The translations under genes and the position numbers were made by a program. The notes under the pieces are model-generated. The model searched no databases. It had not been told where the DNA came from and saw only the letters and a program-made list of their open reading frames with translations. Of a stretch of 64,000 bases of DNA, positions 57-62,307 are shown piece after piece; the stretch's first letter is position 1, and every line of letters starts with the position of its first letter. The stretch comes from Escherichia phage ECP2303, in the sequence record PP261279.1, one strand, 5' to 3'.

Positions 57-2039
57 TTATTTGATGTTATTCTTTGTATCAATCAGTTCACGGTATTCAA
101 TCATAGCAGGAGTGTCCCAATATTTCAAGCCTACATGCTTCAAAAGTGGATATTTCTTTTCCAATCTTGCAATATAGGCCTTCCCGCACTTAACCCGGTT
201 GGCGATTAAGATTTTGGCACGATGATTTAGCTCACCGTACTTCCACGTGGTGCTACCTTCCCACTTGTGAAAATGTGGCCGATAACTTCCAAAATCCTGC
301 ATGGGGATAATTTTACCTAACTGTCTGTACAGGCTGTCATATGAAGTTTCATTTGCTGCGCGAGTTAGTAAGAATTTCCAAGCATCCTCTTTCAACAAAT
401 GTTCCACATTCTTCTCTGTAACATATTGGCAATCAGGATCAGTCCAAAGCAGACGAGATTCCGACACCAGGTACAGATCTTCCCCTTCAGGAATCTGGAG
501 TGCCGCACGCACACGGTCATAATCTTGCTGGTAGATGTTGCTCATCTGCCCTAGCCAACAACTTCCGCGTTGGATATCCCCCTCATACGGTATGCAGTGC
601 TTAATCTTCCTGAACTCTGCCTTAGTAATACGCTCACGCCGGAAGTAACCATCCTTCTCAAGTTTTTTAACCCAATAGCCTGGTTCGTAACGGGTTTTGG
701 TTTCACCTTTCTTCGTAGGTCGGCGTGGAAGCTCCGATAACAATTTGACCGTATCTGCAAAAAACGGATGGTGTGCCGCCTCTTTAAACTCTTTCACCAG
801 ATCCGTGTTACGGCAATAGAAAACGTTGCGTCCGGTAATCTCGCTTAAGTAGTTACACTTATTCCGGTTATATTTGCCGTCTCCGTCGTTAAATACTAAA
901 TAAACTCCCCGTAAGAATTCTACCTTTCCGTAGCAGGCGTAACCTATGCGGCCTTTATTTAAGCCGCCAGCGAAGATCTCGCAGTCCCCCAAATTTCCTA
1001 GCCCTGTTTCTTCCCAGCGGTCATACATAAAATTCTTACCGAAGATGTGCCCGAACACTCCACTGTTCTTCATCATCTCGCGTGCTTCTGAGGATGTTTT
1101 TGCTGTCTCCAGTTCTGCAACAACTTCTGCTCCACGAAGGCGAATGCCTTCTTTGACAAAAGCTTCCAAACGCTCTTGGAATCCACCATCGTCGTGACCT
1201 TCTATGGTCCATTCACGCCCTGGGTTAATATTGCAATCTCCGATAGGGATCTCTACACAAATTGCAGGATAATCTATTAGTGTCTCCAGGAACTTAGAAC
1301 GGTAAGGTTGGTGACCCATTACCACACGACTCTCGTCAGAGCTGGTATAACCCTTCAGGATGGTCATTTTCCAACCATCCTTCTCGTAGTGATACTGCGC
1401 CTCAACCTTGTCACCTTCCAGCATCTTACTGGTCATAGGGTCGGTAACGGTAAACGGAAACTTTGCATAGCGTAGGCATGACGCAATAGCAGTGCGATAT
1501 TTCAGGACATGCTCTTTCTTAACATGGAACTGAACTTTTACCCCGTTGTGCTCTTCAGTCTTCCGCTCGCGGATCTTGGTAACGTTTGGGATACCCTGAT
1601 CCAAGAACAATAGATATGTGCTTTCAACACCATTGTGCACACTGATAACATCGAAAGTGTCCACCATGCTGAACGGAGCCTTTGAACCAACACCTTTATT
1701 ACCTACCAGAGCGTTGCTGTTGCGCTTGGTTGACTCCCCGAGGTTCATGAAAGTGTTGCGGACCATCTCTTCTGACATGCCCAATCCAACGTCCTGCACA
1801 AAGAAGTATGGTTCAAGGTCTGTAGGGGAGTGAATGATGATCGGTACATCACCCCGTCCAGACTCAACATGAGAGTCCACAGCATTGAAGATTGGTTCAC
1901 GGCAGCTTGCCAGCACCTTATCTTCGTAAATCCCTTTAATGATTAGCCCAAAAGTCTCTTTGTTCAGAGAAATTGAGCCCCTGGTGACCTCCATATTTCC
2001 GGTTAGTACTGCTTTAGTTTCATTACTGTTTACAATCAT
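57..2039 (-). CDS. GHKL-type ATPase domain protein, rIIA-like
   Basis: 660-aa ORF. N-terminal Bergerat-fold motifs are visible: E-x3-N-x2-D (EPIFNAVD), DxGxG (QDVGLGMS) and a Gly-rich G2 box (GNKGVGSK). Its stop region overlaps the start of the next gene (ATGA). T4 rIIA is known to carry an N-terminal GHKL domain. Confidence 0.6.
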   Translation of the reverse strand: MIVNSNETKAVLTGNMEVTRGSISLNKETFGLIIKGIYEDKVLASCREPIFNAVDSHVESGRGDVPIIIHSPTDLEPYFFVQDVGLGMSEEMVRNTFMNLGESTKRNSNALVGNKGVGSKAPFSMVDTFDVISVHNGVESTYLLFLDQGIPNVTKIRERKTEEHNGVKVQFHVKKEHVLKYRTAIASCLRYAKFPFTVTDPMTSKMLEGDKVEAQYHYEKDGWKMTILKGYTSSDESRVVMGHQPYRSKFLETLIDYPAICVEIPIGDCNINPGREWTIEGHDDGGFQERLEAFVKEGIRLRGAEVVAELETAKTSSEAREMMKNSGVFGHIFGKNFMYDRWEETGLGNLGDCEIFAGGLNKGRIGYACYGKVEFLRGVYLVFNDGDGKYNRNKCNYLSEITGRNVFYCRNTDLVKEFKEAAHHPFFADTVKLLSELPRRPTKKGETKTRYEPGYWVKKLEKDGYFRRERITKAEFRKIKHCIPYEGDIQRGSCWLGQMSNIYQQDYDRVRAALQIPEGEDLYLVSESRLLWTDPDCQYVTEKNVEHLLKEDAWKFLLTRAANETSYDSLYRQLGKIIPMQDFGSYRPHFHKWEGSTTWKYGELNHRAKILIANRVKCGKAYIARLEKKYPLLKHVGLKYWDTPAMIEYRELIDTKNNIK

Positions 2040-2536
2040 TTATTGCGCTCCTTGTAGTAGATATGACTCCCGAACTGAGCTGTCCTCTGCATCTTTTTTG
2101 CCCATTTCGGTCGTACTTTGGTTGTATGGTAGTGTGTTGCTCCACCTGTTATGTCCATAGCCATGTATGCAACATGGTTGTTATTATAGACCTTTAGAAG
2201 CATCTTTGCAAGACTTTTAGCGTGATCCCATGAATCTTTTTCTGTCACCTTAAAAGTTTTGCCGTGGTTTGTCCACGAAAACTGGTTAGGTTGGTAGACA
2301 ATCTTTCTTATGGTGTCTGGGTATTTGGGGTGAGATTTCCTGTTTAGGGTGGCAAACCCAGATGCCAGCATACCCATCGTGCCATCCCCTCTAGCTTCCC
2401 TGTAGATATTGCATGCTAGAATGTTTTCCTTAGTATCTGATGGCTTGCAAGTATGGTATACTTTTTGTTTTGGTGCTGCAACAACAGGCAGCGATAAAAA
2501 TGCGCTCAAAATAATAGCAAAGATCTTAATTTTCAC
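2036..2536 (-). CDS. Secreted cell-wall hydrolase, SleB/Hydrolase_2-like, with N-terminal signal peptide
   Basis: 166 aa. N-terminus MKIKIFAIILSAFLSLPVVAAP is a typical signal peptide. The motifs NIYREARGDG...ATLNRKSHPKYPDTIRKIVYQPNQFSW match the SleB-type cell-wall hydrolase signature. Confidence 0.6.
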   Translation of the reverse strand: MKIKIFAIILSAFLSLPVVAAPKQKVYHTCKPSDTKENILACNIYREARGDGTMGMLASGFATLNRKSHPKYPDTIRKIVYQPNQFSWTNHGKTFKVTEKDSWDHAKSLAKMLLKVYNNNHVAYMAMDITGGATHYHTTKVRPKWAKKMQRTAQFGSHIYYKERNK

Positions 2537-2585
2537 AATAACTCCAAATAGAAAATCCCCGCCGAAGCGGGGGAGGTCTTAGAAA

Positions 2586-2966
2586 TTAATCGTAGTGTGC
2601 CAAAATCTCTCCATCGTTGCAAGTTCCCTCTACAAAGTTATGAAGATTCATGCACTCATCTTGATAGAAGAATTTACCGCTTTTCAGCCGTAAGCCAAAC
2701 AACTCCGCATCTCCACGATGGCAAGCCTCTACAAGTTCATAGATTTCATACGGCAACTCTCCGTCGTCATGGAAGAACCCAGCCTTATCGTTGACATAGA
2801 TGAAGAAATAATCACTGCTGTCGCAAGCGTCCAATATTTTAAACCAGATTTCATCTACATCTTTTTCTCGGATATCGATCACGCAAGTGGAGCTGCATTC
2901 GTACTCCTTCTCCGGCTCCTCGGTCAATACCACCAGGTAGTTTCCCCGCTTACCTACTTTAGCCAT
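2586..2966 (-). CDS. Hypothetical protein (126 aa)
   Basis: ORF co-oriented with its neighbours and followed on the minus strand by a UUCG-tetraloop terminator at 2557-2574. Confidence 0.55.
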   Translation of the reverse strand: MAKVGKRGNYLVVLTEEPEKEYECSSTCVIDIREKDVDEIWFKILDACDSSDYFFIYVNDKAGFFHDDGELPYEIYELVEACHRGDAELFGLRLKSGKFFYQDECMNLHNFVEGTCNDGEILAHYD

Positions 2967-2975
2967 ACAACCTCC

Positions 2976-4160
2976 TTAAGCTTTAGCCAAAATGGCGCTA
3001 AACTCTTCACCAAACTCTTTTACAATCTTCATCAGGTTTGGGTATGCTTTGATCAGCTGAGCAACGATCTTGTCACGACCTTTACCGATAAGCAAGGCAT
3101 TTCCTAAGGCATTAGGTTTCATCATCGCCATAAAGACTGAAAATACAAAATCTCGGTTCTCGTCCTTGAAGTTTTCCCAAAGGAAATCGAGAAAGTTTGC
3201 CACACAGCTAACAAGATCTTCGTCGGAGATACTTGCATTTTCCATCATATTACGAATAGCGATGCAACCTTCAGATCCAAGAATCCACAAGATGTCTGGC
3301 TGTTTAGGACCTACGTATTCTTTGCAACCTCCTGCCATAATCCGACCGATTTCCGGTAAGTTGCGTTTCTTGGTGTGGTAAGTCCAGATCTCTACCGCTG
3401 CAGTGTGACCAATAGCACCTTGCAGAAGAACACGGGCCATAGCGTCAGAAATAATACCGCTGTCAAAATCGTGCAAGATATCAGATGCAGCAACCCAAGA
3501 TCGCGGTGTGGCAAAAGATGGACAATTAATCTCAGCCATGGCCTCATAATTATCGATAGCTGATGGAACTCTTTTCAGATATCCAATTACAGAGGAGTGC
3601 ACCCCATTAAGGAATGCGTAGTCCTCAATAAACACCTCTGCATTGCTTGTAACCTCTACAATGATAAAACGGTTAGCCAGAGGGGCTTCGAGCGCCGAAA
3701 GAACCGCACCATCTGTAGAACGGTTACCAGCAGCCACAAAAACAGACCCCTTAGGGAATGCATAAGTACCGCACTTGTGGTCAAGCATAATTTGCATTGC
3801 AACCTTTTGTAGGTAGTTATCTGCATGAGTGAGCTCATCCAGAAAGATAATTCCGCTCCAGTCAGGATCCGCAGGCCAAAATTCTGGAATTGCAAACACT
3901 GTACGTGTAGTTCCATCCGCTTCTACAGGGATAGGTAGCCCAGATAAGTCGGCAGGATCTTTATCTGACAGCCGCACGTCAACAAGGTTGTCATCTCGCT
4001 CACCGAACATATTATCAGCGATCTGCTTCATCACCTGGCTTTTACCTACACCCATTGGTCCCAAAATTAGGACAGATCGGCTATGACGTTGGGCAAACTG
4101 AATAATAGCTGGCAACTCACGGACAGTGATTTGACCACTTTCGAATACGTTTCTTGACAT
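2976..4160 (-). CDS. MoxR-like AAA+ ATPase
   Basis: 394 aa. Walker A LILGPMGVGKSQ and Walker B IIFLDELTHA in a single AAA domain followed by a C-terminal extension, which is the MoxR/AAA_5 architecture. Confidence 0.8.
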   Translation of the reverse strand: MSRNVFESGQITVRELPAIIQFAQRHSRSVLILGPMGVGKSQVMKQIADNMFGERDDNLVDVRLSDKDPADLSGLPIPVEADGTTRTVFAIPEFWPADPDWSGIIFLDELTHADNYLQKVAMQIMLDHKCGTYAFPKGSVFVAAGNRSTDGAVLSALEAPLANRFIIVEVTSNAEVFIEDYAFLNGVHSSVIGYLKRVPSAIDNYEAMAEINCPSFATPRSWVAASDILHDFDSGIISDAMARVLLQGAIGHTAAVEIWTYHTKKRNLPEIGRIMAGGCKEYVGPKQPDILWILGSEGCIAIRNMMENASISDEDLVSCVANFLDFLWENFKDENRDFVFSVFMAMMKPNALGNALLIGKGRDKIVAQLIKAYPNLMKIVKEFGEEFSAILAKA

Positions 4161-5114: not shown

Positions 5115-5491
5115 TATTCTACCTCCTCTTCTTTTTCTTCGGCATTAGTTTCATGGCTACCCCACTCTGGAGTTTCCACCTCGATAGTAAACTCACGCAC
5201 TACACGGTAATTGCCCATGAAGCGCTCCACTTCGTCAAGGCTTATGGAGAGGCCATTGGCAACCAGGTCTGCAGCACCCTCTTCTACCAGGTAGTCCAGA
5301 TTGGCTTCCAGAGCTTCAGGTTCAAACCCTGTCAATGCAATCAGATAACCTTTCCCTTCATCAGGGAGGACAATACATCCCAACTGATTTTCTTTAAAAA
5401 GGCAGTGACCATCATTATTGATTGGGTGTTCATTGCAGTAAATAGCTGCACGATAAGTAACTTTAGACATCGGCAAGGTCTCCTTAGGCAA
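5114..5491 (-). CDS. Hypothetical protein (125 aa) with acidic C-terminus
   Basis: Co-oriented ORF; stop/start overlap with its neighbour. Confidence 0.5.
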   Translation of the reverse strand: MPKETLPMSKVTYRAAIYCNEHPINNDGHCLFKENQLGCIVLPDEGKGYLIALTGFEPEALEANLDYLVEEGAADLVANGLSISLDEVERFMGNYRVVREFTIEVETPEWGSHETNAEEKEEEVE

Positions 5492-5762
5492 TTGTCATTT
5501 TACATTCTTGAAATTTTAACACAAGACGGTGATTGTGTCTAGTGTCTAAAAAGATTTTTTCAACCATCAGGCACACGGTATAACCGTCCATCTTGTTGAC
5601 AACAAAATCTCCAGGGTAAGGGAGAGTGTCCCCTGGGCTGGGAAAGCATAACCCGCTCAGAAAGGCATCATCGGTGGTGGACTTAATGGATTTCCACACA
5701 CTATCTGCCTGAACATTCTCACCAACATAATATACACTACCACATGACTTCATCATAGTCAA
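5484..5762 (-). CDS. Hypothetical protein (92 aa)
   Basis: Co-oriented ORF overlapping both neighbours by a few codons; the true start is uncertain. Confidence 0.4.
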   Translation of the reverse strand: MTMMKSCGSVYYVGENVQADSVWKSIKSTTDDAFLSGLCFPSPGDTLPYPGDFVVNKMDGYTVCLMVEKIFLDTRHNHRLVLKFQECKMTIA

Positions 5763-6657
5763 TCTCCGCGTAAATTAAACTGGAATCAGTATACTTCTTT
5801 AATGGGTAAATATCCTGTCCATAGATGCAATCATTAAACACCTCATCTACCCAAAGGCTACGCTTATATCCCATCATTTCTAAAACACTCATCTCTTCTT
5901 CGGTAAACTTATCACCACTCTTGCAAGATGTCAATACCTCATTTTGAACTCTTGCTACCTCGAATCGGTTATTGGCAATATCGCTATTGGCGATCAAATA
6001 CTCACCTAGAGGGTGTGCGGCATTAAAGATGCACAGTGGACGGCTGACGTAATAGTCTCCGGGTGTATAAAAATTGTTGAGGTCTTTCACTAGAACATTC
6101 TTATCAGTCACTTCATTTATAACATCATGCATATCGCACATCTTTATATGTTTGAGGATTCCATCTCCCATCACAAAATAAAAACTTGCTGAGACACTTT
6201 CGGCATAGATCTTACTAGATCCGTTGTAGTTGTATTTTACTCGGATGCTAACGGGGGTTTTTCCTGTCGCGTTAGCCATCATCCAAAGAAATGGCAGCTC
6301 ATACTTCTCCTCTGAGGAAACAAAAGGTGAGGTAGCCAGAGATCGAAAACCTCCAGAGAAGTTGAAAGTTACAGAACCGCTCCGGCGGTATGATACCGCG
6401 TATTCTACTTTTATATCGACGTACCCATTGGAATAGGTGTGTCCTTCATTATCTAAATATGTCCACTTATCAGACCCAGATACCAATCTACGCTCAATAA
6501 CCTTCATCACTACAGGAATTAGTGGGTTGGTACAAACCGCTTTTGAAGTAGCTTTATCATCTAAAGCCTCGTAAATTGCAGAAAGGATGTCCCCAGCTGA
6601 AAGATTGGTTGTTATGTCCTGTTTCCACCGCGTACTAAAACTGTTAAGATTTGCCAT
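5737..6657 (-). CDS. Hypothetical protein (306 aa); first gene of the leftward early operon
   Basis: ATG at 6657 is preceded by AGGAG on the minus strand and lies just downstream of the TTGACT-N17-TATAGT promoter. Confidence 0.65.
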   Translation of the reverse strand: MANLNSFSTRWKQDITTNLSAGDILSAIYEALDDKATSKAVCTNPLIPVVMKVIERRLVSGSDKWTYLDNEGHTYSNGYVDIKVEYAVSYRRSGSVTFNFSGGFRSLATSPFVSSEEKYELPFLWMMANATGKTPVSIRVKYNYNGSSKIYAESVSASFYFVMGDGILKHIKMCDMHDVINEVTDKNVLVKDLNNFYTPGDYYVSRPLCIFNAAHPLGEYLIANSDIANNRFEVARVQNEVLTSCKSGDKFTEEEMSVLEMMGYKRSLWVDEVFNDCIYGQDIYPLKKYTDSSLIYAEIDYDEVMW

Positions 6658-6733: not shown

Positions 6734-7777
6734 TTGATGTTGACATCTGTTGAGACAATTGATACGATTTCTTCACTTACAGAGCACGAGAGACGACGCA
6801 TGAATCTTGAAAAATATTATACACCAGAAGAGTTAGAGCGCTTGCTCAAAAAATATAGACGCAAACAGAATAACGCACGGAAACGAGATATAGAGTTCGA
6901 CCTGTCATGGGAAGAATACCTCCTATTTGGTAAAAAACTTTTAGGAGATGGAGTATGCGACTATACCCTTATACCTTTTGACATGCACACAGATGAAAAC
7001 GGGCTGGGGAATCCTTTCTACCCATCTTTGGAGCGTATAGATGATGAAGGTCCTTACGCAATTGACAATTGTTGTGTGGTAGGGTTGAGGTGCAATGCTC
7101 TGAAAGACTGTCTGGTAGATAAAAAGACTGCAATCCTGATTAAAGACAAAACTGATCGAAAAATTGTCCAGCAGATGATGCTCCACCTGAGTGAAGAGCG
7201 TATGGAGAAGTTGAAAGGTGATTATACTTTTGAAGATTTCATCTTGCAATACGGGACAGAAGAAGATAAACTAGCACTATTTGACGAAGAGGAAGAAGAT
7301 ATGTCACCGATGCAGGATTTTAAAAATTTCATGGCTGATCGTGCAGCCAACAAACACATTTCAGACATCGTAAACGAGACTGTGACAGAAGAAATTGAAG
7401 AACAGACATCTGAAGAGGAAAAAGAGCCTCAGGTGGTTGAAGAGGAGATTGCAGAAGAGGTTCCTGCACTGCCTGATGATGTTGAGATTGCTAAGGCTTA
7501 CACTTTCTATTGTCAAACGTTCTACGATGCAGGTATGAAAGTTGACCTGTCGTTCAGCCAATTTAAGAGTTCGTATATTCGCAAATGCTGTGCTTTAACT
7601 GGTGAACGTCTCGGAGCTGGACTTAAACCACTGTTGGTGACCGACTGGAATAAAGGTTTCACTAAAGGAAACTTTATGGTAGTATCTCCAATTATGGAGA
7701 AAGCTATGACAGATCTTATGAAGACCACCCGCATGACAATGACCGAGTTGGCAGGTATTTTCAAACACGTTAAATAA
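6734..7777 (+). CDS. Hypothetical protein with acidic Glu-rich region; probable true start at 6800
   Basis: The ORF-track start at 6734 sits inside the promoter -35 box. The first ATG downstream of the predicted transcription start is at 6800 (MNLEKYYTPEEL...). A Glu-rich low-complexity stretch is present. Confidence 0.65.
   Translation: MMLTSVETIDTISSLTEHERRRMNLEKYYTPEELERLLKKYRRKQNNARKRDIEFDLSWEEYLLFGKKLLGDGVCDYTLIPFDMHTDENGLGNPFYPSLERIDDEGPYAIDNCCVVGLRCNALKDCLVDKKTAILIKDKTDRKIVQQMMLHLSEERMEKLKGDYTFEDFILQYGTEEDKLALFDEEEEDMSPMQDFKNFMADRAANKHISDIVNETVTEEIEEQTSEEEKEPQVVEEEIAEEVPALPDDVEIAKAYTFYCQTFYDAGMKVDLSFSQFKSSYIRKCCALTGERLGAGLKPLLVTDWNKGFTKGNFMVVSPIMEKAMTDLMKTTRMTMTELAGIFKHVK
6739..6767 (+). 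promoter_or_regulatory. Sigma70-like promoter for the rightward early operon
   Basis: TTGACA (6739-6744), a 17-nt spacer, then TACGAT (6762-6767). Its -35 box and that of the divergent promoter lie in the two arms of a 7-bp inverted repeat GTCAACA(6722-6728)/TGTTGAC(6738-6744). Confidence 0.55.
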
Positions 7778-20967: not shown

Positions 20968-21234
20968 TTAAGCTTTTTGCTCTTCGTTTTTAACGTGGTC
21001 AGGGTGCTGGCAACCCCACCGGAGCGAGATGAATTTGCTAATAAGCTGGGGGCAGGCTACTGAAGGTGCATATATCCACGCATACCATTCAGGAAGCGTA
21101 TCATTATACCCCATATGAATAAACACCCCAGTCATCACCGCCATGCCTATGTTCGACCATAGCTTAGATTGGGATACTTTCGTAGGGTCATCAGATGCCG
21201 CAACCAGTCCCCATAAAAACTGAGTTAGTTTCAT
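20968..21234 (-). CDS. Small membrane protein, holin-like (88 aa)
   Basis: One or two predicted transmembrane segments (WSNIGMAVMTGVFIHMGY, WYAWIYAPSVA...) and a charged C-terminus (HVKNEEQKA). Confidence 0.4.
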   Translation of the reverse strand: MKLTQFLWGLVAASDDPTKVSQSKLWSNIGMAVMTGVFIHMGYNDTLPEWYAWIYAPSVACPQLISKFISLRWGCQHPDHVKNEEQKA

Positions 21235-22378: not shown

Positions 22379-22693
22379 TTACCTTTTACTATGCTCTACG
22401 AGCATGTGCAAAATCTTTTGTACATCAGCTCGGATGCCGGAGACATCTGTCCTGACATCCTGCTTAAGGTCGTTAATATCGGCCTCTAGCTTGCTTAACC
22501 GGGTCTCGATAACGGAATCAAGTCTATCTTTTGTAACCATACTGTTTTTCACTAAGATGAGGTCTTTCTCCAGTTCATCCAACCTCTGGGAAATGCCTTT
22601 CCATTTGGTGTGCCACTGGTTGAAAGCCCATACACAGATCGGGACAACGGTACCCATACAGATACCGTACAATGCCGCCAAATCCAACTCCAC
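22379..22693 (-). CDS. Membrane-anchored coiled-coil protein (104 aa)
   Basis: N-terminal transmembrane segment (LAALYGICMGTVVPICVWAF) followed by a heptad-like charged helix; lies between Tfa and fibre B. Confidence 0.45.
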   Translation of the reverse strand: MELDLAALYGICMGTVVPICVWAFNQWHTKWKGISQRLDELEKDLILVKNSMVTKDRLDSVIETRLSKLEADINDLKQDVRTDVSGIRADVQKILHMLVEHSKR

Positions 22694-57961: not shown

Positions 57962-57993
57962 AAGCTTTACCCCTCAAAACAGTATAACAAAAT

Positions 57994-58013
57994 AGCCCTC
58001 GTGTCAGAGGGCT
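57994..58013 (-). terminator. Hairpin with weak U-tract between the terminase and portal genes (possible attenuator)
   Basis: Minus strand reads AGCCCUCUGACACGAGGGCU followed by AUUUUGUUAUACUGUUUU. Confidence 0.4.
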
Positions 58014-58063
58014 AGTATCTCCGATTACTCTATTCTACCACATCTAATTAAGATTGGCAACAC

Positions 58064-59611
58064 TTAGATAAAACGCTTGAACATAGAAGGTGATGAGATT
58101 GATGGAATCACACAAGGCAGCGCTACCTCCTCTTTCTCTAGGAAATTAATCGCAGAAGCTACACAGTCGGCCCAGTCGTCTTTTCTGTTAAATGTTGATC
58201 TTTCCCCGTTGAACTTTTCAAGTTCAGTCAGAAATGCTTCCAGAGTGTCAGGATGGAAACTGGATTTTACAATCCTCACCATTCCTTGTTGGGCAAGATT
58301 GGCAAAAGGTGAGAACCTTGTCAGTTTAGATTTGTTGGAAGGCATTGGATCTTCTTCAACCCTGAACCCTTCGGCGAGCAAGGATCTGGATGAGGTTAAG
58401 AACTCACTCTTACCTGCCTGGCCGGGGTCCACAGAAAATACGATTATGCAATCATCTCCATCAAACTGTGCCTGTTTCCTGATGATCACATCTCGTTCCC
58501 CAGCCTTTTTACAGAACTTGCCTTCCAGACCTGTGGAATACCTACCGTCATCCACGTTCTCAGGACAATAATCTCCGGACAGGTAATAAAAGCCGTCGCT
58601 ATCTTTACTTACCTTAACACTGGCGGTAAAGTCAGGAAATTTATTACCGGAAGTTCTCTCGGTCCCTGCCTTATCCCATGCCCTGCAAGATACTGATCCA
58701 AGAGGTACTCTATCGGCATCCCGAAGGAAAGATCTTTGGAAATAGTTTGCACCCTCAGGTTTGGCAAACCAGTTGCCATGAAGAAGCTGGGCTTTTTCAA
58801 GCTCTGGCAGACCTTCAAGGAAAGCAAGGTATTCTGGGTTGTCTCTCAAGCAGACAGGATTATCGAAAATTGTTGCGCCTATAAACGAGAATGACAACGG
58901 TCTTGGCTTGATCTCCACACCCAGTCCGTTAACCGTGGTGTATTTCTCTATTAACTCTTCTTTAGAGTCTCCCCAAATAAATTCACCGTCGCGTCGGATA
59001 AAATATCTTTTCTTACCACATTTCTCCGGATCTGGATACCCTTCATCGTCCAACCACCACCTAACCAGTTTGGCAAGCATGTGTTCTGAGTCGGGGTTAC
59101 AGCTGATAACCATTCTTGATGGATACTTTGACTGAGATCGCAGACGAGACATCAAATAGTCTATCTGCTCCCATTCGAATTGCGTGCCTTCATCGAAGCA
59201 AACCATGGTGTACTCAAGGCCTTGATGGTTAAGCTTATCTTGGACATACTCCATGTGGCAGTATTTTACAACGGCCCCCTTTTTGCTCCTATCCCACTTG
59301 CCAGTGCTCGGATCAAACCGTGGAAAAATAAACTTATGATCCTTCTCTCTGAACTTTGGTTTAATGTTTTCAGGCAGATCACTGTAAATAGCTACTGCTT
59401 TAGGCCATAGCCCACCCTCACCTTCCAACTGGGGAGTTGTTCTTCGGAACATAACCACAGAGCTGTGCGGGTCATCAATAATTTTAAGCGGCATTAGCTG
59501 CAAGAGGAACGACTTGCCAGACCCAGCTGCACCTCCGATCACCAAAATATCTGCATCGTTCTCTAGGATCATCTTCTGCTTTTCAGAACACGGTCCGTAA
59601 ATCTTAGACAT
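58064..59611 (-). CDS. Terminase large subunit
   Basis: 515 aa. Walker A GGAAGSGKS, Walker B MVCFDE, and a C-terminal nuclease-type acidic region (VFSVDPGQAGKSEF). Start overlaps the o-spanin stop. Confidence 0.9.
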   Translation of the reverse strand: MSKIYGPCSEKQKMILENDADILVIGGAAGSGKSFLLQLMPLKIIDDPHSSVVMFRRTTPQLEGEGGLWPKAVAIYSDLPENIKPKFREKDHKFIFPRFDPSTGKWDRSKKGAVVKYCHMEYVQDKLNHQGLEYTMVCFDEGTQFEWEQIDYLMSRLRSQSKYPSRMVISCNPDSEHMLAKLVRWWLDDEGYPDPEKCGKKRYFIRRDGEFIWGDSKEELIEKYTTVNGLGVEIKPRPLSFSFIGATIFDNPVCLRDNPEYLAFLEGLPELEKAQLLHGNWFAKPEGANYFQRSFLRDADRVPLGSVSCRAWDKAGTERTSGNKFPDFTASVKVSKDSDGFYYLSGDYCPENVDDGRYSTGLEGKFCKKAGERDVIIRKQAQFDGDDCIIVFSVDPGQAGKSEFLTSSRSLLAEGFRVEEDPMPSNKSKLTRFSPFANLAQQGMVRIVKSSFHPDTLEAFLTELEKFNGERSTFNRKDDWADCVASAINFLEKEEVALPCVIPSISSPSMFKRFI

Positions 59612-59898
59612 TAACCTCTCTCCTTTGGAAACAGTGTTCTTATATAGTCTTGCAAAATGATCAATTTAGCTCTATCATTACTACAAGACAGGTTATTATC
59701 CCTCATAATGCCAGAATTCACCGCATCTGGCGCACCTTTCTTCAAAGGGATAGCTTTAGCAGGTGGTTTCATAGCACCCTCGGGAGGTTTAACAATCAAC
59801 CTTCCTACATTCGGAGGGTCAATCTTGTATTCTCTCTCAACGCTGGTTGCACACCCACACAATAACAAGCACAAAACAACCAGTGCAGTAACTCTCAT
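59611..59898 (-). CDS. o-spanin (outer-membrane lipoprotein, Rz1-like)
   Basis: Signal peptide with lipobox (LLLCGC); Pro-rich mature part (PPNVGRLIVKPPEGAMKPPAKAIP); 95 aa; immediately downstream of the i-spanin. Confidence 0.65.
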   Translation of the reverse strand: MRVTALVVLCLLLCGCATSVEREYKIDPPNVGRLIVKPPEGAMKPPAKAIPLKKGAPDAVNSGIMRDNNLSCSNDRAKLIILQDYIRTLFPKERG

Positions 59899-60293
59899 CG
59901 AACCTCCTGATTGATACTCTCATTATAAATATCTATTAGCTGATCAGGAAGTGTTGACTTCTTACCTTCAGGAGATTGGAGGTAGATAATCTGCTTTTCT
60001 TTACCTGCCTTCTCAGCCATATTTAATTTATCCTGTAGATCAGAAAGAGATTTTTCAAGGTTTTTAACCTCCTCTGCGTGGCCCATTTTAATTTTGTCGG
60101 CCTGCTTTTGTTGTTGGTCAAGGATCCGTTCCCACTTTAACTCTGTTGCTGACACACCTTCTTGATAAGCATCATTGAGCTTAGAGTTAAACCAATACAC
60201 GGCCCCAAGATAAGCCATGCCTATAGCCGCTGCAAAAACTAAACCTTTTATGATCCCTCTGTGTTTACTCATCAATGTTAAAACTGAAATCAT
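59895..60293 (-). CDS. i-spanin (Rz-like)
   Basis: N-terminal transmembrane segment (GLVFAAAIGMAYLGAVYWF) followed by a long charged coiled-coil; ATGA overlap with the o-spanin gene. Confidence 0.6.
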   Translation of the reverse strand: MISVLTLMSKHRGIIKGLVFAAAIGMAYLGAVYWFNSKLNDAYQEGVSATELKWERILDQQQKQADKIKMGHAEEVKNLEKSLSDLQDKLNMAEKAGKEKQIIYLQSPEGKKSTLPDQLIDIYNESINQEVR

Positions 60294-60312
60294 TTTTAAG
60301 GCTCCAGAAACG

Positions 60313-60347
60313 AAAAAACCCCGCAGCTATACAGCTAACGGGGCGGG
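60313..60347 (-). terminator. Intrinsic terminator upstream of the spanin genes
   Basis: Minus strand reads CCCCG...CGGGG hairpin (with a nested AGCUGUAUAGCU palindrome) followed by UUUUUUCG. Confidence 0.5.
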
Positions 60348-60399
60348 TTAAAATTGAGTAACCTAAATAGATCGAAACTAACTAAAAGGAGACTAATAC

Positions 60400-60669
60400 T
60401 TATCGAGGCACTCGGTGGATGATTCTGACAGTAACCGCATTCTCATTCATCAAGTAAGCATCCACATCTCTGTAAATATAAAACTTCTGCTCGCTATCAA
60501 CAACACAAGCTACTGCCCCTTCAGAGTTGTCTTCAAAGAAGACCACAACTGCATCGCAGCTTAGTTCATGATACGACTCTCGAAGATTTACAGCAAGAGG
60601 GTTGAAATCGTCACGAAGATCTAAAGTATGGGTTGGATTTACACGTTCTACAATTTTAAGTGTATACAT
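60400..60669 (-). CDS. Hypothetical protein (89 aa)
   Basis: ORF between the tRNA cluster and the spanin genes; co-oriented. Confidence 0.5.
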   Translation of the reverse strand: MYTLKIVERVNPTHTLDLRDDFNPLAVNLRESYHELSCDAVVVFFEDNSEGAVACVVDSEQKFYIYRDVDAYLMNENAVTVRIIHRVPR

Positions 60670-60715
60670 TTTAAAGGTTCCTTTTGTGTGTATATATTTA
60701 AAGTATAACTAAAGG

Positions 60716-60792
60716 TGGTCTCCACGGAGTGATTCGAACACTCGACCTCCTGATCCCAAATCAGGCGCTCTACCAAGCTGAGCTACGCGGAG
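60716..60792 (-). tRNA. tRNA-Pro (anticodon UGG)
   Basis: 77-nt cloverleaf folded by hand: 7-bp acceptor stem (one G-U), D-arm GCTC/GAGC, anticodon loop UUUGGGA, T-loop TTCGAAT, encoded CCA. Confidence 0.8.
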
Positions 60793-60803
60793 TATTTATT
60801 ATT

Positions 60804-60878
60804 TGGTGGCCCTGGGTGGAATTGAACCACCGTCTGGCGATTATGAGTCGCTTGCTTGAACCTTCCAGCTACAGGGCC
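60804..60878 (-). tRNA. tRNA-Met or Ile2 (anticodon CAU)
   Basis: 75 nt. Perfect acceptor stem GGCCCTG/CAGGGCC, T-arm GGTGG-TTCAATT-CCACC, anticodon loop CUCAUAA, CCA encoded. D-arm and the 27-43 pair are imperfect. Confidence 0.6.
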
Positions 60879-60879
60879 A

Positions 60880-60955
60880 TGGTGCTGATGGCAGGACTTG
60901 AACCTGCAACCTATTGATTACAAATCAATTGCACTGACAATTGTGCTACATCAGC
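60880..60955 (-). tRNA. tRNA-Thr (anticodon UGU)
   Basis: 76 nt. Acceptor GCTGATG/CATCAGC, D-arm GCAC/GTGC, anticodon loop UUUGUAA, T-arm GCAGG-TTCAAGT-CCTGC, CCA encoded. Confidence 0.8.
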
Positions 60956-60959
60956 AAAA

Positions 60960-61058
60960 GGTGCTAGGTGATGGAATCGAACCACCTATGTATTCAACGA
61001 CTACCTCGTCTATTTTCAGGATTAAAAATCCTCGCCCTTGCCAAAGGGCTTACCTAGC
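60960..61058 (-). tRNA. Atypical tRNA-like element (possible tRNA-Lys UUU with oversized variable region, or pseudo-tRNA)
   Basis: About 99 nt. Perfect 7-bp acceptor stem GCTAGGT/ACCTAGC, D-arm GCCC/GGGC and T-arm GGTGG-TTCGATT-CCATC. The central 46 nt holds a perfect hairpin AGGATT-TTT-AATCCT (readable as a loop UUUUUAA) plus a further 28 nt. Confidence 0.4.
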
Positions 61059-61156
61059 GCAATATGTTGACCATGTGGCTAGTCGGCGATGACGACTGTA
61101 ACATTTGATAATCCGGTTCTGCTTCCGGCTTTCGCTTAATTACAAGGTCAACAATG

Positions 61157-61247
61157 TGGCGGAGAGTAATGGAATCGAACCATCATCGAGTTATCCTCAA
61201 CGGGACGGTTTTCAAGACCGCTTGAGCACCATTGCTCCCTACCCTCC
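61157..61247 (-). tRNA. tRNA-Ser (anticodon UGA), class II
   Basis: About 91 nt. Acceptor GGAGGGT/ACTCTCC (one G-U), anticodon loop CUUGAAA, long variable arm, T-loop TTCGATT, CCA encoded. Confidence 0.65.
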
Positions 61248-61361
61248 TTTATAAATTACACTGATAATGACACTGATTTTCGAGCAGTTAGTGACTAGTA
61301 TAAACGACGATAAATATCAATGTCATTATCTGTATGATTTATGCATTTAAAAATATAAATT

Positions 61362-61448
61362 TGGTGGGGAGTGGTGGAGTCGAACCACCCGAGTCGCAAT
61401 GACAATAGATTTACAGTCTACACCGCTACCTCTACGGGATAACTCCCC
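61362..61448 (-). tRNA. tRNA-Tyr (anticodon GUA), class II
   Basis: About 87 nt. Acceptor GGGGAGT/ACTCCCC, anticodon loop CUGUAAA, long variable arm, T-arm GGTGG-TTCGACT-CCACC, CCA encoded. Confidence 0.65.
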
Positions 61449-61452
61449 AATT

Positions 61453-61527
61453 TGGCACCCCGTACTGGACTCGAACCAGTGTCAACGGCTTAGAAGGCCG
61501 CTGCTTTATCCACTAAGCTAACAGGGC
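61453..61527 (-). tRNA. tRNA-Arg (anticodon UCU)
   Basis: 75 nt. Acceptor GCCCTGT/ACGGGGT (two G-U), D-arm GCTT/AAGC, anticodon loop CUUCUAA, T-arm ACTGG-TTCGAGT-CCAGT, CCA encoded. Confidence 0.8.
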
Positions 61528-61623
61528 ACTGGGTGGCTTTCTTTTACACCTGAGCCGCCAGAAAAGGTGGGAGACCATGTTTATAATATTACACTGTTAG
61601 GCAAAGTTTGTCAAGAAAATATT

Positions 61624-62082
61624 TTAACTATTGCCAACAGGCTGTATTTCTGTGGTAAATGGCATAAAAGGTGCTGGTTTTTCAGCCTCTTCTACTACCA
61701 CCTCTTCCTCTTCACCAAACATCTCATCATATTCTTCCTGCATTCGGTCTGCCTTATCAAGAACATACTCTGCAATGCTTTGACGAATATTTTGTTTGGT
61801 TTTCGGGTCCAACATCAGCTCTCTTAAAACTTTGTGAGCTTCTGGAACCATCGCTATAAAAGATTCCTTCATATCAAGGATGTTCTTCTCTAGCTGAATG
61901 GCGTTGGACTCCTCTTTCAGAGGTCTGCCTCTACGGCGACGCTTTTTAGTTGTATCCGCCATGTTTCCTCCATTATCACGTGATAGGTGGATTTTATCAC
62001 GGCAAATACTGATTGTCAAGTTCGCCGCAGGGTGGTATTCCCTGCGACTTGCCCAGCGTCCTGGACCAGCAAGACCCAACAA
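61624..62082 (-). CDS. Small basic/acidic protein, possible DNA-binding (candidate small terminase or regulator); probable true start at 61962
   Basis: Internal ATG at 61962 is preceded by GGAGG and by a consensus promoter. The product starts MADTTKKRRRRGRP (basic, AT-hook-like) and ends in an acidic tail. Confidence 0.5.
   Translation of the reverse strand: MLGLAGPGRWASRREYHPAANLTISICRDKIHLSRDNGGNMADTTKKRRRRGRPLKEESNAIQLEKNILDMKESFIAMVPEAHKVLRELMLDPKTKQNIRQSIAEYVLDKADRMQEEYDEMFGEEEEVVVEEAEKPAPFMPFTTEIQPVGNS
61991..62019 (-). promoter_or_regulatory. Strong sigma70-like promoter with adjacent palindromic operator-like site
   Basis: Minus strand reads TTGACA (62019-62014), 17-nt spacer, TAAAAT (61996-61991). 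A perfect 10-bp palindrome ATCACGTGAT (61974-61983) overlaps the predicted transcription start, with GGAGG-ATG downstream. Confidence 0.6.
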
Positions 62083-62307
62083 GTGGGTTACCAGATACCC
62101 ATTACCGCGCTCTGGCTCGACCTTATTACAGGTTGGCTGGGGTCACATCGTCATGTGCTGGCTGCCCCTACCATTTTAAGTGTGGTGCACTATCAAGCCC
62201 TCTAAGGGGAACTCAGACTTCTCCGAACCCTGTTTCAAAGCATCCGGAGATAAAGCCATCAAACTCATCTTTAAATTGGATATTCATCATGATACACGAA
62301 AACAACC

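Follow-up and report, generated by a model that had tools for sequence, protein, structure and literature searches.

Spanins of rV5-like phages

In the curated spanin database, the rv5 families, which hold the spanins of phages rV5, FV3 and JES2013, are entered as 'sep' with a distance of -4 and lengths of 132 and 95 aa (Kongari 2018, PMC6139136). The spanin genes of rV5, PVP-SE1 and CB7 (CB7_252/253, Certrevirus) adjoin the large terminase gene outside any lysis cassette, as do those of the podoviruses SP6 and VP4 (Buttimer 2020, PMC7344957). The pair, its architecture and its position beside the gene for the large terminase subunit (TerL) are already known for rV5-like phages (PMC7344957, PMC6139136, PMC6658697), and the main import of the present analysis is correct annotation.

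The sequence analysed here, called the window, is a stretch of 64,000 nucleotides from Escherichia phage ECP2303 (PP261279.1). It covers 47% of the 136.9-kb genome of an rV5-like phage (Vequintavirus). The sole difference between the window and Escherichia phage ECP2309 is one 1-nt indel near window position 5763, and positions 58000-62200 are 100% identical. The spanin genes already carry the labels I-spanin and O-spanin in the GenBank record of ECP2309. Coordinates marked 'record' are those of the ECP2309 record, whose numbering is distinct from window positions.

A spanin pair upstream of the large terminase gene

Three overlapping genes make up the locus:

59895-60293, minus strand, i-spanin gene, 132 aa (ORF, hydropathy, PHROG match; annotated as I-spanin in PP464953.1)
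59611-59898, minus strand, o-spanin gene, 95 aa (ORF, lipobox scan, PHROG match; annotated as O-spanin)
58064-59611, minus strand, TerL gene, 515 aa, uninterrupted (ORF, sequence reading)

A first, sequence-only reading had described i-spanin and o-spanin as separate genes with a 4-nt overlap, directly upstream of TerL and overlapping it, and both junctions can be read in the DNA. The i-spanin stop and o-spanin start share four nucleotides (plus-strand 'tcat' at 59895-59898, ATGA on the minus strand), which gives the adjacent, 'separated' architecture of a spanin pair. The o-spanin TAA and the TerL ATG share one nucleotide (plus-strand 'catta' at 59609-59613, TAATG). A separate Shine-Dalgarno sequence precedes each of the three genes (GGAG, AGGAGG and GGAGAGAGG), the GGAG before i-spanin lying at 60302-60305. 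The rV5 spanins, encoded at 61155-61554 and 60871-61159 of that phage, are the same proteins with the same lengths, 4-nt overlap, lipobox region and position upstream of TerL, and differ from those of ECP2303 by few substitutions (90.9% identity for i-spanin). The TerL gene contains introns in rV5 and LL12 but is uninterrupted here.

The 132-aa protein has a single hydrophobic helix at residues ~13-35 in the hydropathy scan (Kyte-Doolittle 1.81-1.94), with basic residues K10/H11/R12 just before it and no second transmembrane domain (TMD). This profile predicts a type II protein (N-in/C-out) with one N-terminal TMD. A single-sequence AlphaFold2 model places helices at residues 3-99 and 115-131 and a disordered linker at 100-114, which points to a mostly helical periplasmic domain of two segments; confidence in the model is moderate because its mean pLDDT is 72.7. 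A coiled coil at 53-104 has been tabulated for the rV5 homologue (PMC6139136).

For the 95-aa protein, a lipobox scan required the pattern [ILMFTV][^REKD][GAS]C and, for outer-membrane sorting, a residue other than Asp at +2. It returned a lipoprotein signal, MRVTALVVLCLLLCG followed by Cys16, with the lipobox LCGC and Ala at +2. Lack of a functional lipobox, which would have told against the earlier assignment, can thus be set aside. The mature protein would have 80 aa, including 9 Pro and one Cys (C72), and hydropathy past the signal revealed no hydrophobic segment or TMD. Such a short, proline-rich, TMD-free mature domain is characteristic of o-spanins, and the o-spanin of the rv5 family shows the same features (Kongari 2018 supplement, PMC6139136). 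Spanins are further expected to contain at least one periplasmic Cys permitting a homotypic intermolecular disulfide (Kongari 2018, PMC6139136). Cys72 could supply this potential bond; as i-spanin contains no Cys in its 132 aa, any covalent dimer would have to use this single residue.

Both proteins match 'Rz-like spanin' profiles, i-spanin in phrog_4297 (E 1.4e-48) and o-spanin in phrog_1267 (E 4.3e-22). These values, together with the occurrence of i-spanin homologues in 196 phage records, argue against a chance match, and the TMD and lipobox signals agree with the identity first proposed for the pair. Seunavirus SSE121, Henunavirus Hena1 and Mydovirus KNP2 share the gene order, i-spanin, o-spanin (4-nt overlap), TerL, portal. 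These three genera carry an extra ORF of 269-485 aa chained upstream of i-spanin that is absent here; as a possible small terminase or lysis protein it had no Pfam match, and in PHROGs it matched only families without assigned function and, weakly, a nucleotidyltransferase. From the signals, the architecture and the family membership, we consider that the product of this locus is very probably the two-component spanin of an rV5-like myovirus.

The surroundings of the locus contain the following elements:

60313-60344, minus strand, intrinsic-terminator-like hairpin, 11 bp with one bulge, then U6 (RNA fold)
57993-58014, minus strand, terminator-like hairpin and T-run right after TerL (sequence and fold)
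58031-58040, late-motif-like TGGTAGAATA, before the portal gene
60716-61527, minus strand, cluster of seven tRNAs upstream of the spanins (context only, outside the lysis system)

The first hairpin ends 19 nt from the i-spanin ATG, and the 76-nt stretch that holds it folds with -21.5 kcal/mol (z -2.2). No sigma-70-like or rV5 late-motif promoter was found in the interval between this hairpin and i-spanin. Upstream of the spanins lie this terminator, a gene for an 89-aa soluble protein and the seven tRNAs; downstream lie TerL and portal. The spanins and TerL form a packed three-gene unit with terminator-like hairpins on both sides, and may be co-transcribed. The unit heads the block of packaging and head genes, so the spanin would be made together with the virion proteins.

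Lysis enzymes at distant loci

The spanin locus contains no holin or muralytic gene, as the sequence-only reading had stated. No other protein with a hydrophobic helix is encoded within 3 kb on either side, and none of the spanin-neighbourhood proteins scanned against Pfam and PHROGs has a muralytic domain. A contiguous holin-endolysin-spanin cassette is absent from this site, and it is this absence of a nearby holin or muralytic gene that upholds the reading of the lysis genes as dispersed. The part of that reading that does not stand is its list of partners, which named a SleB-like hydrolase and the membrane proteins of the fibre module as the only candidates. That list is an artefact of a window confined to less than half of the genome: the endolysin and one holin candidate, the homologue of rV5 gp129, lie outside it. 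The window's large virion proteins (tape measure, hub, fibres, baseplate) were scanned for muralytic domains and none was found; in the record's 'baseplate central spike and tail lysozyme' we found only a short N-terminal PF18352 domain and no lysozyme domain. The two enzymes concerned are:

Record 102813-103283 (outside the window), strand opposite to the spanins, lambda-R-type lysozyme/endolysin (1AM7 match)
2036-2536, minus strand, SleB-like cell-wall hydrolase, 166 aa (Pfam, PHROG and PDB matches, hydropathy)

The lambda-R-type enzyme is encoded 10.06 kb from the spanin locus among replication genes. It is similar to lambda lysozyme over its full length (1AM7, E 3.2e-56, residues 4-154) and retains 'ysEGtdng', with the catalytic Glu of the SEGT motif. 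Its maximum hydropathy is 0.48, and it thus lacks an export signal, whether signal peptide or SAR. Homologues are LysECP26, rV5 gp89 and LL12 gp90.

The SleB-like gene, correctly located by the sequence-only reading, lies 57 kb from the spanin locus, in front of rIIA and rIIB:

57-2039, minus strand, rIIA homologue (phrog_612 RIIA, E 2e-123), directly downstream of the SleB-like gene

The rIIB gene follows outside the window (phrog_609 RIIB, E 1e-61). Hydropathy predicts an N-terminal Sec-type signal peptide in the SleB-like protein (hydrophobic residues 5-21, cleavage at VVA/AP). The protein matches Pfam Hydrolase_2 (PF07486, E 2.1e-19; 70.4 bits, gathering cut-off 27), the endolysin family phrog_938 (E 1.7e-27) and Bacillus cereus SleB (4F55, E 2.5e-6), and retains the Glu of the YxE(S/A)RG motif.

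With its catalytic motif intact and a clear signal peptide, the SleB-like protein could itself be the working endolysin, exported by Sec without a holin, perhaps under the control of the adjacent rIIA/rIIB, to which its gene is chained by 4-nt overlaps (its stop with the rIIA start); the lambda-R-like enzyme would then be accessory. Homologues of the SleB-like protein occur in all Vequintavirinae genera, that of CR3 has been implicated in lysis and that of CB7 is toxic in E. coli (PMC7344957). The cytoplasmic endolysin varies in type by genus, being a GH19 enzyme in KPP-1 and a peptidase in CB7 (for CB7, PMC7344957). However, the operon that includes the SleB-like gene appears to consist of early or middle genes (replication, rII), and an active muramidase exported without control would cause premature lysis. 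Nor is the association with rII universal, since CB7 lacks rIIA/B (PMC7344957). It is moreover the lambda-R-type enzyme whose counterpart in the close relative ECP26 was purified and proved lytic (LysECP26, PMC9728275), and that the annotators of rV5 and LL12 picked as the endolysin. On balance we regard the SleB-like protein as an improbable main endolysin.

In the preferred reading, with the lambda-R-type enzyme as endolysin, the N-terminal helix would anchor the 132-aa protein in the inner membrane, with the protein's helical domain extending into the periplasm, and the 95-aa protein would be exported, receive its lipid at Cys16 and be sorted to the outer membrane. Joined by their C-termini, the two would form a complex that spans the periplasm and is restrained by the peptidoglycan network. 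A holin would let the cytoplasmic endolysin degrade the wall, and with the wall gone the spanin complex would fuse inner and outer membranes, so that the cell bursts.

Holin candidates

A holin is typically a small membrane protein with at least one TMD and a charged C-terminus, its gene as a rule adjoining that of the endolysin. No membrane protein was found beside any of the three lysis loci (spanins, lambda-R-like endolysin and SleB-like hydrolase), and all holin candidates sit at sites distant from the spanins and the endolysin:

20968-21234, minus strand, 88-aa small membrane protein of the tail-fibre module, candidate holin (phrog_1322 'membrane protein', E 2.7e-32)
22379-22693, minus strand, 104-aa protein of the tail-fibre module, N-terminal TMD and coiled-coil tail (hydropathy, phrog_5345)
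Record 125502-125729 (outside the window), homologue of rV5 gp129, 75-78 aa, two TMDs, genus-restricted

The published holin candidate is rV5 gp129 (PMC3606486). The 88-aa protein has weakly hydrophobic segments at ~26-43 and ~50-67, and homologues in 368 phage records, phAPEC8-like phages included; its homologue in phage BME3 is labelled 'membrane protein-holin'. Homologues of the 104-aa protein were found in 223 records across Vequintavirinae, and phrog_5345 is without assigned function. Pfam and PHROGs gave no holin-family match for any of these three proteins. A 123-aa protein with two TMDs, record 7166-7537, is a further candidate.

A wider proposal, which we put forward as tentative and rather unlikely as a whole, is that the Vequintavirinae holin is a small membrane protein of the fibre module and not gp129. 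The 88-aa protein would be the main candidate and the 104-aa protein might be its partner. Lysis would follow two parallel routes, one using the rIIA/rIIB-linked, Sec-exported SleB-like enzyme and the other a swappable cytoplasmic endolysin, and read-through of the hairpin at 60313-60344 would activate the spanin/TerL unit. The membrane proteins of the fibre module might just as well mask receptors or assist in fibre assembly. The identity of the holin is of practical interest, since biocontrol and therapy cocktails draw on rV5-like phages, a widespread group.

Other readings of the locus

The two ORFs assigned to the spanin could instead encode another envelope pair, such as a superinfection-exclusion lipoprotein and its membrane anchor. 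Exclusion is the role of the phage lipoproteins T5 Llp and Cor, and the position outside any lysis cassette would fit such a pair. Against this, all defining spanin signals are present in both partners in the typical adjacent architecture, the two genes are kept together at the same place in four genera, and a whole-genome TMD scan found no other i-spanin/o-spanin-like pair. A tailed phage of Gram-negative hosts is normally expected to encode a spanin (Kongari 2018, PMC6139136), and we consider an exclusion pair very improbable.

That the dispersion is only apparent, a conventional holin-endolysin cassette having been overlooked, is hardly credible: small genes are often missed, and ORFs of 68 and 72 aa do follow the lambda-R-like lysozyme, but neither of these two has a hydrophobic segment, both belong to PHROG families without assigned function and are followed by an HNH endonuclease gene, the annotated plus-strand ORFs up to 3 kb from the lysozyme reach a 17-residue Kyte-Doolittle maximum of at most 1.37, and three independent annotation teams found no holin adjoining the lysozyme. 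The lysozyme thus has no membrane-protein neighbour, and the 136.9-kb genome shows no canonical lysis cassette elsewhere, a finding that would have told against dispersed lysis genes.

Comparison with T4, T7 and lambda

Large virulent myoviruses, as a rule, have scattered lysis genes. In T4, the spanins are likewise unlinked to holin and endolysin, and PseT.3/PseT.2 are likewise 'separated' with a stop/start overlap. As here, the T4 o-spanin is rather long (~80 aa mature) and has a C-terminal helix-prone segment. The T4 spanins nevertheless belong to a different sequence family from the rV5-type pair, and they are not known to adjoin the terminase genes. In T7, the spanin genes 18.5/18.7 are flanked by terminase genes 18 and 19.

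In its two-component logic the pair resembles lambda Rz/Rz1: an inner-membrane protein of type II that has two helical segments in the periplasm, and an outer-membrane lipoprotein. There is no detectable sequence similarity between the two systems, neither protein of the pair having a Pfam match above the curated threshold. The lambda Rz1 gene lies within Rz in a different reading frame, and the two end the S-R-Rz cassette, whereas here the spanin is encoded by separate genes far from the endolysin.

Spanin genes adjoining the large terminase gene

The gene pair beside the large terminase gene (terL, encoding TerL) is a genuine spanin pair; the core of the sequence-only reading is correct, and the pair is already known.

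Genes of the spanin locus, from the ORF list and the sequence (window positions)
59895..60293, minus strand, i-spanin gene, 132 aa
59611..59898, minus strand, o-spanin gene, 95 aa
58064..59611, minus strand, TerL gene, 515 aa

As that reading held, the spanins are separate genes with a 4-nt overlap, at ATGA (59895-59898), and they abut terL, with which the o-spanin gene has one base in common, in TAATG (59609-59613). Each of the three starts has its own Shine-Dalgarno sequence. The lipobox of the 95-aa protein is intact: its N-terminus (MRVTALVVLCLLLCG/C) contains LCGC with Cys16, and the Ala at +2 fits outer-membrane sorting as predicted from sequence. The mature product has 80 residues, including 9 prolines and one cysteine (C72), while the 132-aa protein has a single hydrophobic helix (~13-35) and no cysteine. 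Both are assigned to 'Rz-like spanin' families in PHROGs (132-aa protein, phrog_4297, E 1.4e-48; 95-aa protein, phrog_1267, E 4.3e-22); Pfam gave a family for neither. In a single-sequence AlphaFold2 model of moderate confidence, the 132-aa protein comprises a long helix (3-99) joined through a disordered linker (100-114) to another at 115-131, a predicted arrangement that corresponds to the Rz-type layout. The signals, PHROG families and Rz-type model therefore confirm that the ORF pair is not a chance occurrence. Direct observation covers the targeting signals and gene architecture, the assignment to families, and synteny.

The locus is best explained as a standard two-component spanin. Following the lambda and T4 paradigms (PMC6139136, PMC5295617), the inner-membrane protein would pair with the outer-membrane lipoprotein in a periplasm-spanning complex, probably disulfide-linked through Cys72, which peptidoglycan would hold back until the wall is removed by an endolysin that a holin releases. 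The complex would then fuse the inner and outer membranes. Expression would be late, and the genes would be co-transcribed with terL.

Surroundings and transcription

Features around the spanin and terminase genes (window positions)
60716-61527, seven tRNA genes, upstream of the spanins
upstream, beyond the 60313-60344 hairpin, gene for an 89-aa soluble protein (phrog_8729)
60313-60344, minus strand, terminator-like hairpin with a U6 tract, ending 19 nt before the i-spanin ATG (60293)
58031-58040, sequence resembling the rV5 late motif (TGGTAGAATA), after the second hairpin and before the portal gene
57993-58014, second terminator-like hairpin, downstream of terL

With a hairpin on either side, the spanin genes and terL together resemble a compact unit of three genes. 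No sigma-70-like or late-motif promoter was found between the 60313-60344 hairpin and the i-spanin gene. Because this strong hairpin stands so close ahead with no recognisable promoter between, the unit may need transcripts from the tRNA region to read through the terminator.

Window-wide, the rV5 late-promoter-like motif TGGTAAAATA (at most one mismatch) was observed 18 times against 5.9 expected, with no copy directly upstream of the spanins. Fifteen of the 18 are on the minus strand, all inside or beside structural genes (e.g., 28650, 34161, 48301, 51822 and 58031, minus strand). Within the tRNA cluster, a 99-nt tRNA-like gene (60960-61058, minus strand) has no clean anticodon; ARAGORN reports 'tRNA-???' with a 4-base anticodon, and its Rfam tRNA score reaches only 35.5 bits. 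The gene may encode a degenerate or unusual tRNA.

Lysis genes across the genome

The genome outside the window was examined through the complete annotated record of Escherichia phage ECP2309 (PP464953.1, 136,863 bp; Vequintavirinae; Vequintavirus), which is 100% identical to window positions 58000-62200 by megablast. More than 100 further rV5-like phages match this interval at 96-99% (megablast). The window corresponds to positions 32460-96460 of PP464953.1, or 47% of the genome. Over the 64 kb, the sole difference is a 1-nt indel at window ~5763, the window being one A shorter in an A-run. It falls where ORFs 5484-5762 and 5737-6657 meet, between a small ORF and a gene annotated as a putative fucosyltransferase, and alters the C-terminal end of the latter. 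About 18 'Campylobacter phage' records (MG0656xx, host Campylobacter jejuni) are at least 96% identical to the present E. coli rV5-like phage, and their host label looks doubtful.

Lysis genes and candidates away from the spanin locus
record 102813-103283, plus strand, lambda-R-type lytic transglycosylase, 156 aa, outside the window
2036-2536, minus strand, SleB-like hydrolase (Pfam Hydrolase_2, E 2e-19; SleB 4F55, E 2.5e-6)
20968-21234, minus strand, 88-aa membrane protein of the tail-fibre module (phrog_1322 'membrane protein')
22379-22693, minus strand, 104-aa TMD-plus-coiled-coil protein of the tail-fibre module

We surveyed lysis genes by a whole-genome ORF and hydropathy scan, plus family and structure-database searches. 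Lysis functions thus lie at four or more sites, with no canonical cassette anywhere in the genome; at least three loci had been proposed. The claim that the spanin locus has no holin or muralytic gene also stands: no other protein encoded within 3 kb has a hydrophobic helix, and the lambda-R-type gene is 10.06 kb away, flanked by DNA ligase on one side and small soluble ORFs and an HNH endonuclease on the other.

The lambda-R-type enzyme matches lambda lysozyme (1AM7, E 3e-56) with its catalytic Glu conserved, and lacks an export signal. It is the counterpart of rV5 gp89, LL12 gp90 and LysECP26, the last of which, from the close relative ECP26, was purified and is lytically active (PMC9728275). 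The SleB-like hydrolase and fibre-module proteins, previously named as the only partner candidates, stay on a list that was incomplete because the window covers under half of the genome: the lambda-R-type enzyme and a gp129 homologue lie outside it.

The main alternative is that the SleB-like hydrolase, whose Sec signal peptide is typical (hydrophobic 5-21, VVA/AP), contributes to lysis or even dominates it. Its CB7 homologue is toxic in E. coli and its CR3 homologue has been implicated in lysis (PMC7344957). We nevertheless consider this unlikely, since it is the lambda-R-type enzyme that has been validated biochemically and that three annotation teams picked. Scans of large virion proteins encoded in the window found no muralytic domain. 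The SleB-like gene is followed by rIIA and rIIB with 4-nt overlaps (57-2536, minus strand, running on beyond the window), a linkage that is not general across the subfamily, as CB7 has no rII.

None of the proteins scanned matched a holin family. Among small proteins in the whole-genome scan, just one, a 75-aa product (record 125502-125729), combines two TMDs with a basic C-terminus; it is homologous to rV5 gp129, put forward as holin by Kropinski et al. (PMC3606486). It is restricted to the genus Vequintavirus and is 'hypothetical' in every annotation. We found the 88-aa protein in 368 phage records, among them phAPEC8-like and Aeromonas phages, always next to fibre or spike genes; the annotation of phage BME3 calls it 'membrane protein-holin'. 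The 104-aa protein occurs in 223 phage records across the subfamily. Conservation of both extends well outside the genus. Neither matched a holin family in Pfam or PHROGs, and possible roles for both are holin, receptor masking or fibre assembly. A 123-aa protein outside the window (record 7166-7537, minus strand, in piece L001; phrog_13090) has two strongly hydrophobic TMDs.

Comparison with related phages and known systems

The i-spanin is present in 196 phage records. Salmonella phage SSE121 (Seunavirus), Erwinia phage Hena1 (Henunavirus) and Klebsiella phage KNP2 (Mydovirus) share the gene order, with i-spanin and o-spanin overlapping by 4 nt and followed by TerL and portal. Unlike the present phage, which has just the hairpin and the 89-aa ORF at this position, these genera have an extra upstream ORF of 269-485 aa that shares 4 nt with the i-spanin start.

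Extra upstream ORF in sequences from relatives (phrog_16176; weak nucleotidyltransferase match)
L004 (Seunavirus) 2677-3486
L005 (Henunavirus) 2065-3489
L006 (Mydovirus) 2026-3483

The cytoplasmic endolysin type varies by genus, being GH19 in KPP-1 and a T5-like peptidase in CB7 (PMC7344957). The spanin-TerL linkage and SleB-like enzyme are kept (PMC7344957).

The pair is already annotated as spanins in GenBank (ECP2309, Murica, FFH2, LL12, BASEL phages). The remaining interest for this phage group is modest, namely which protein is the holin and how the two wall hydrolases divide the work. The LL12 announcement named endolysin, i-spanin and o-spanin, with a holin not identifiable. Kongari et al. 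(2018; PMC6139136) placed rv5, FV3 and JES2013 in one i-spanin family and within the seven-member rv5 o-spanin family, and their rv5 entries ('sep', distance -4, 132 and 95 aa, lipobox LLCG, one periplasmic Cys) agree with the present pair. Buttimer et al. placed the spanins of rV5, PVP-SE1 and CB7 beside the large terminase and away from a lysis cassette, pointed to a comparable layout in podoviruses VP4 and SP6, and likened the stop/start overlap to that of T4 (PMC7344957). The separated lysin and putative holin of rV5 had already been likened to T4 (PMC3606486).
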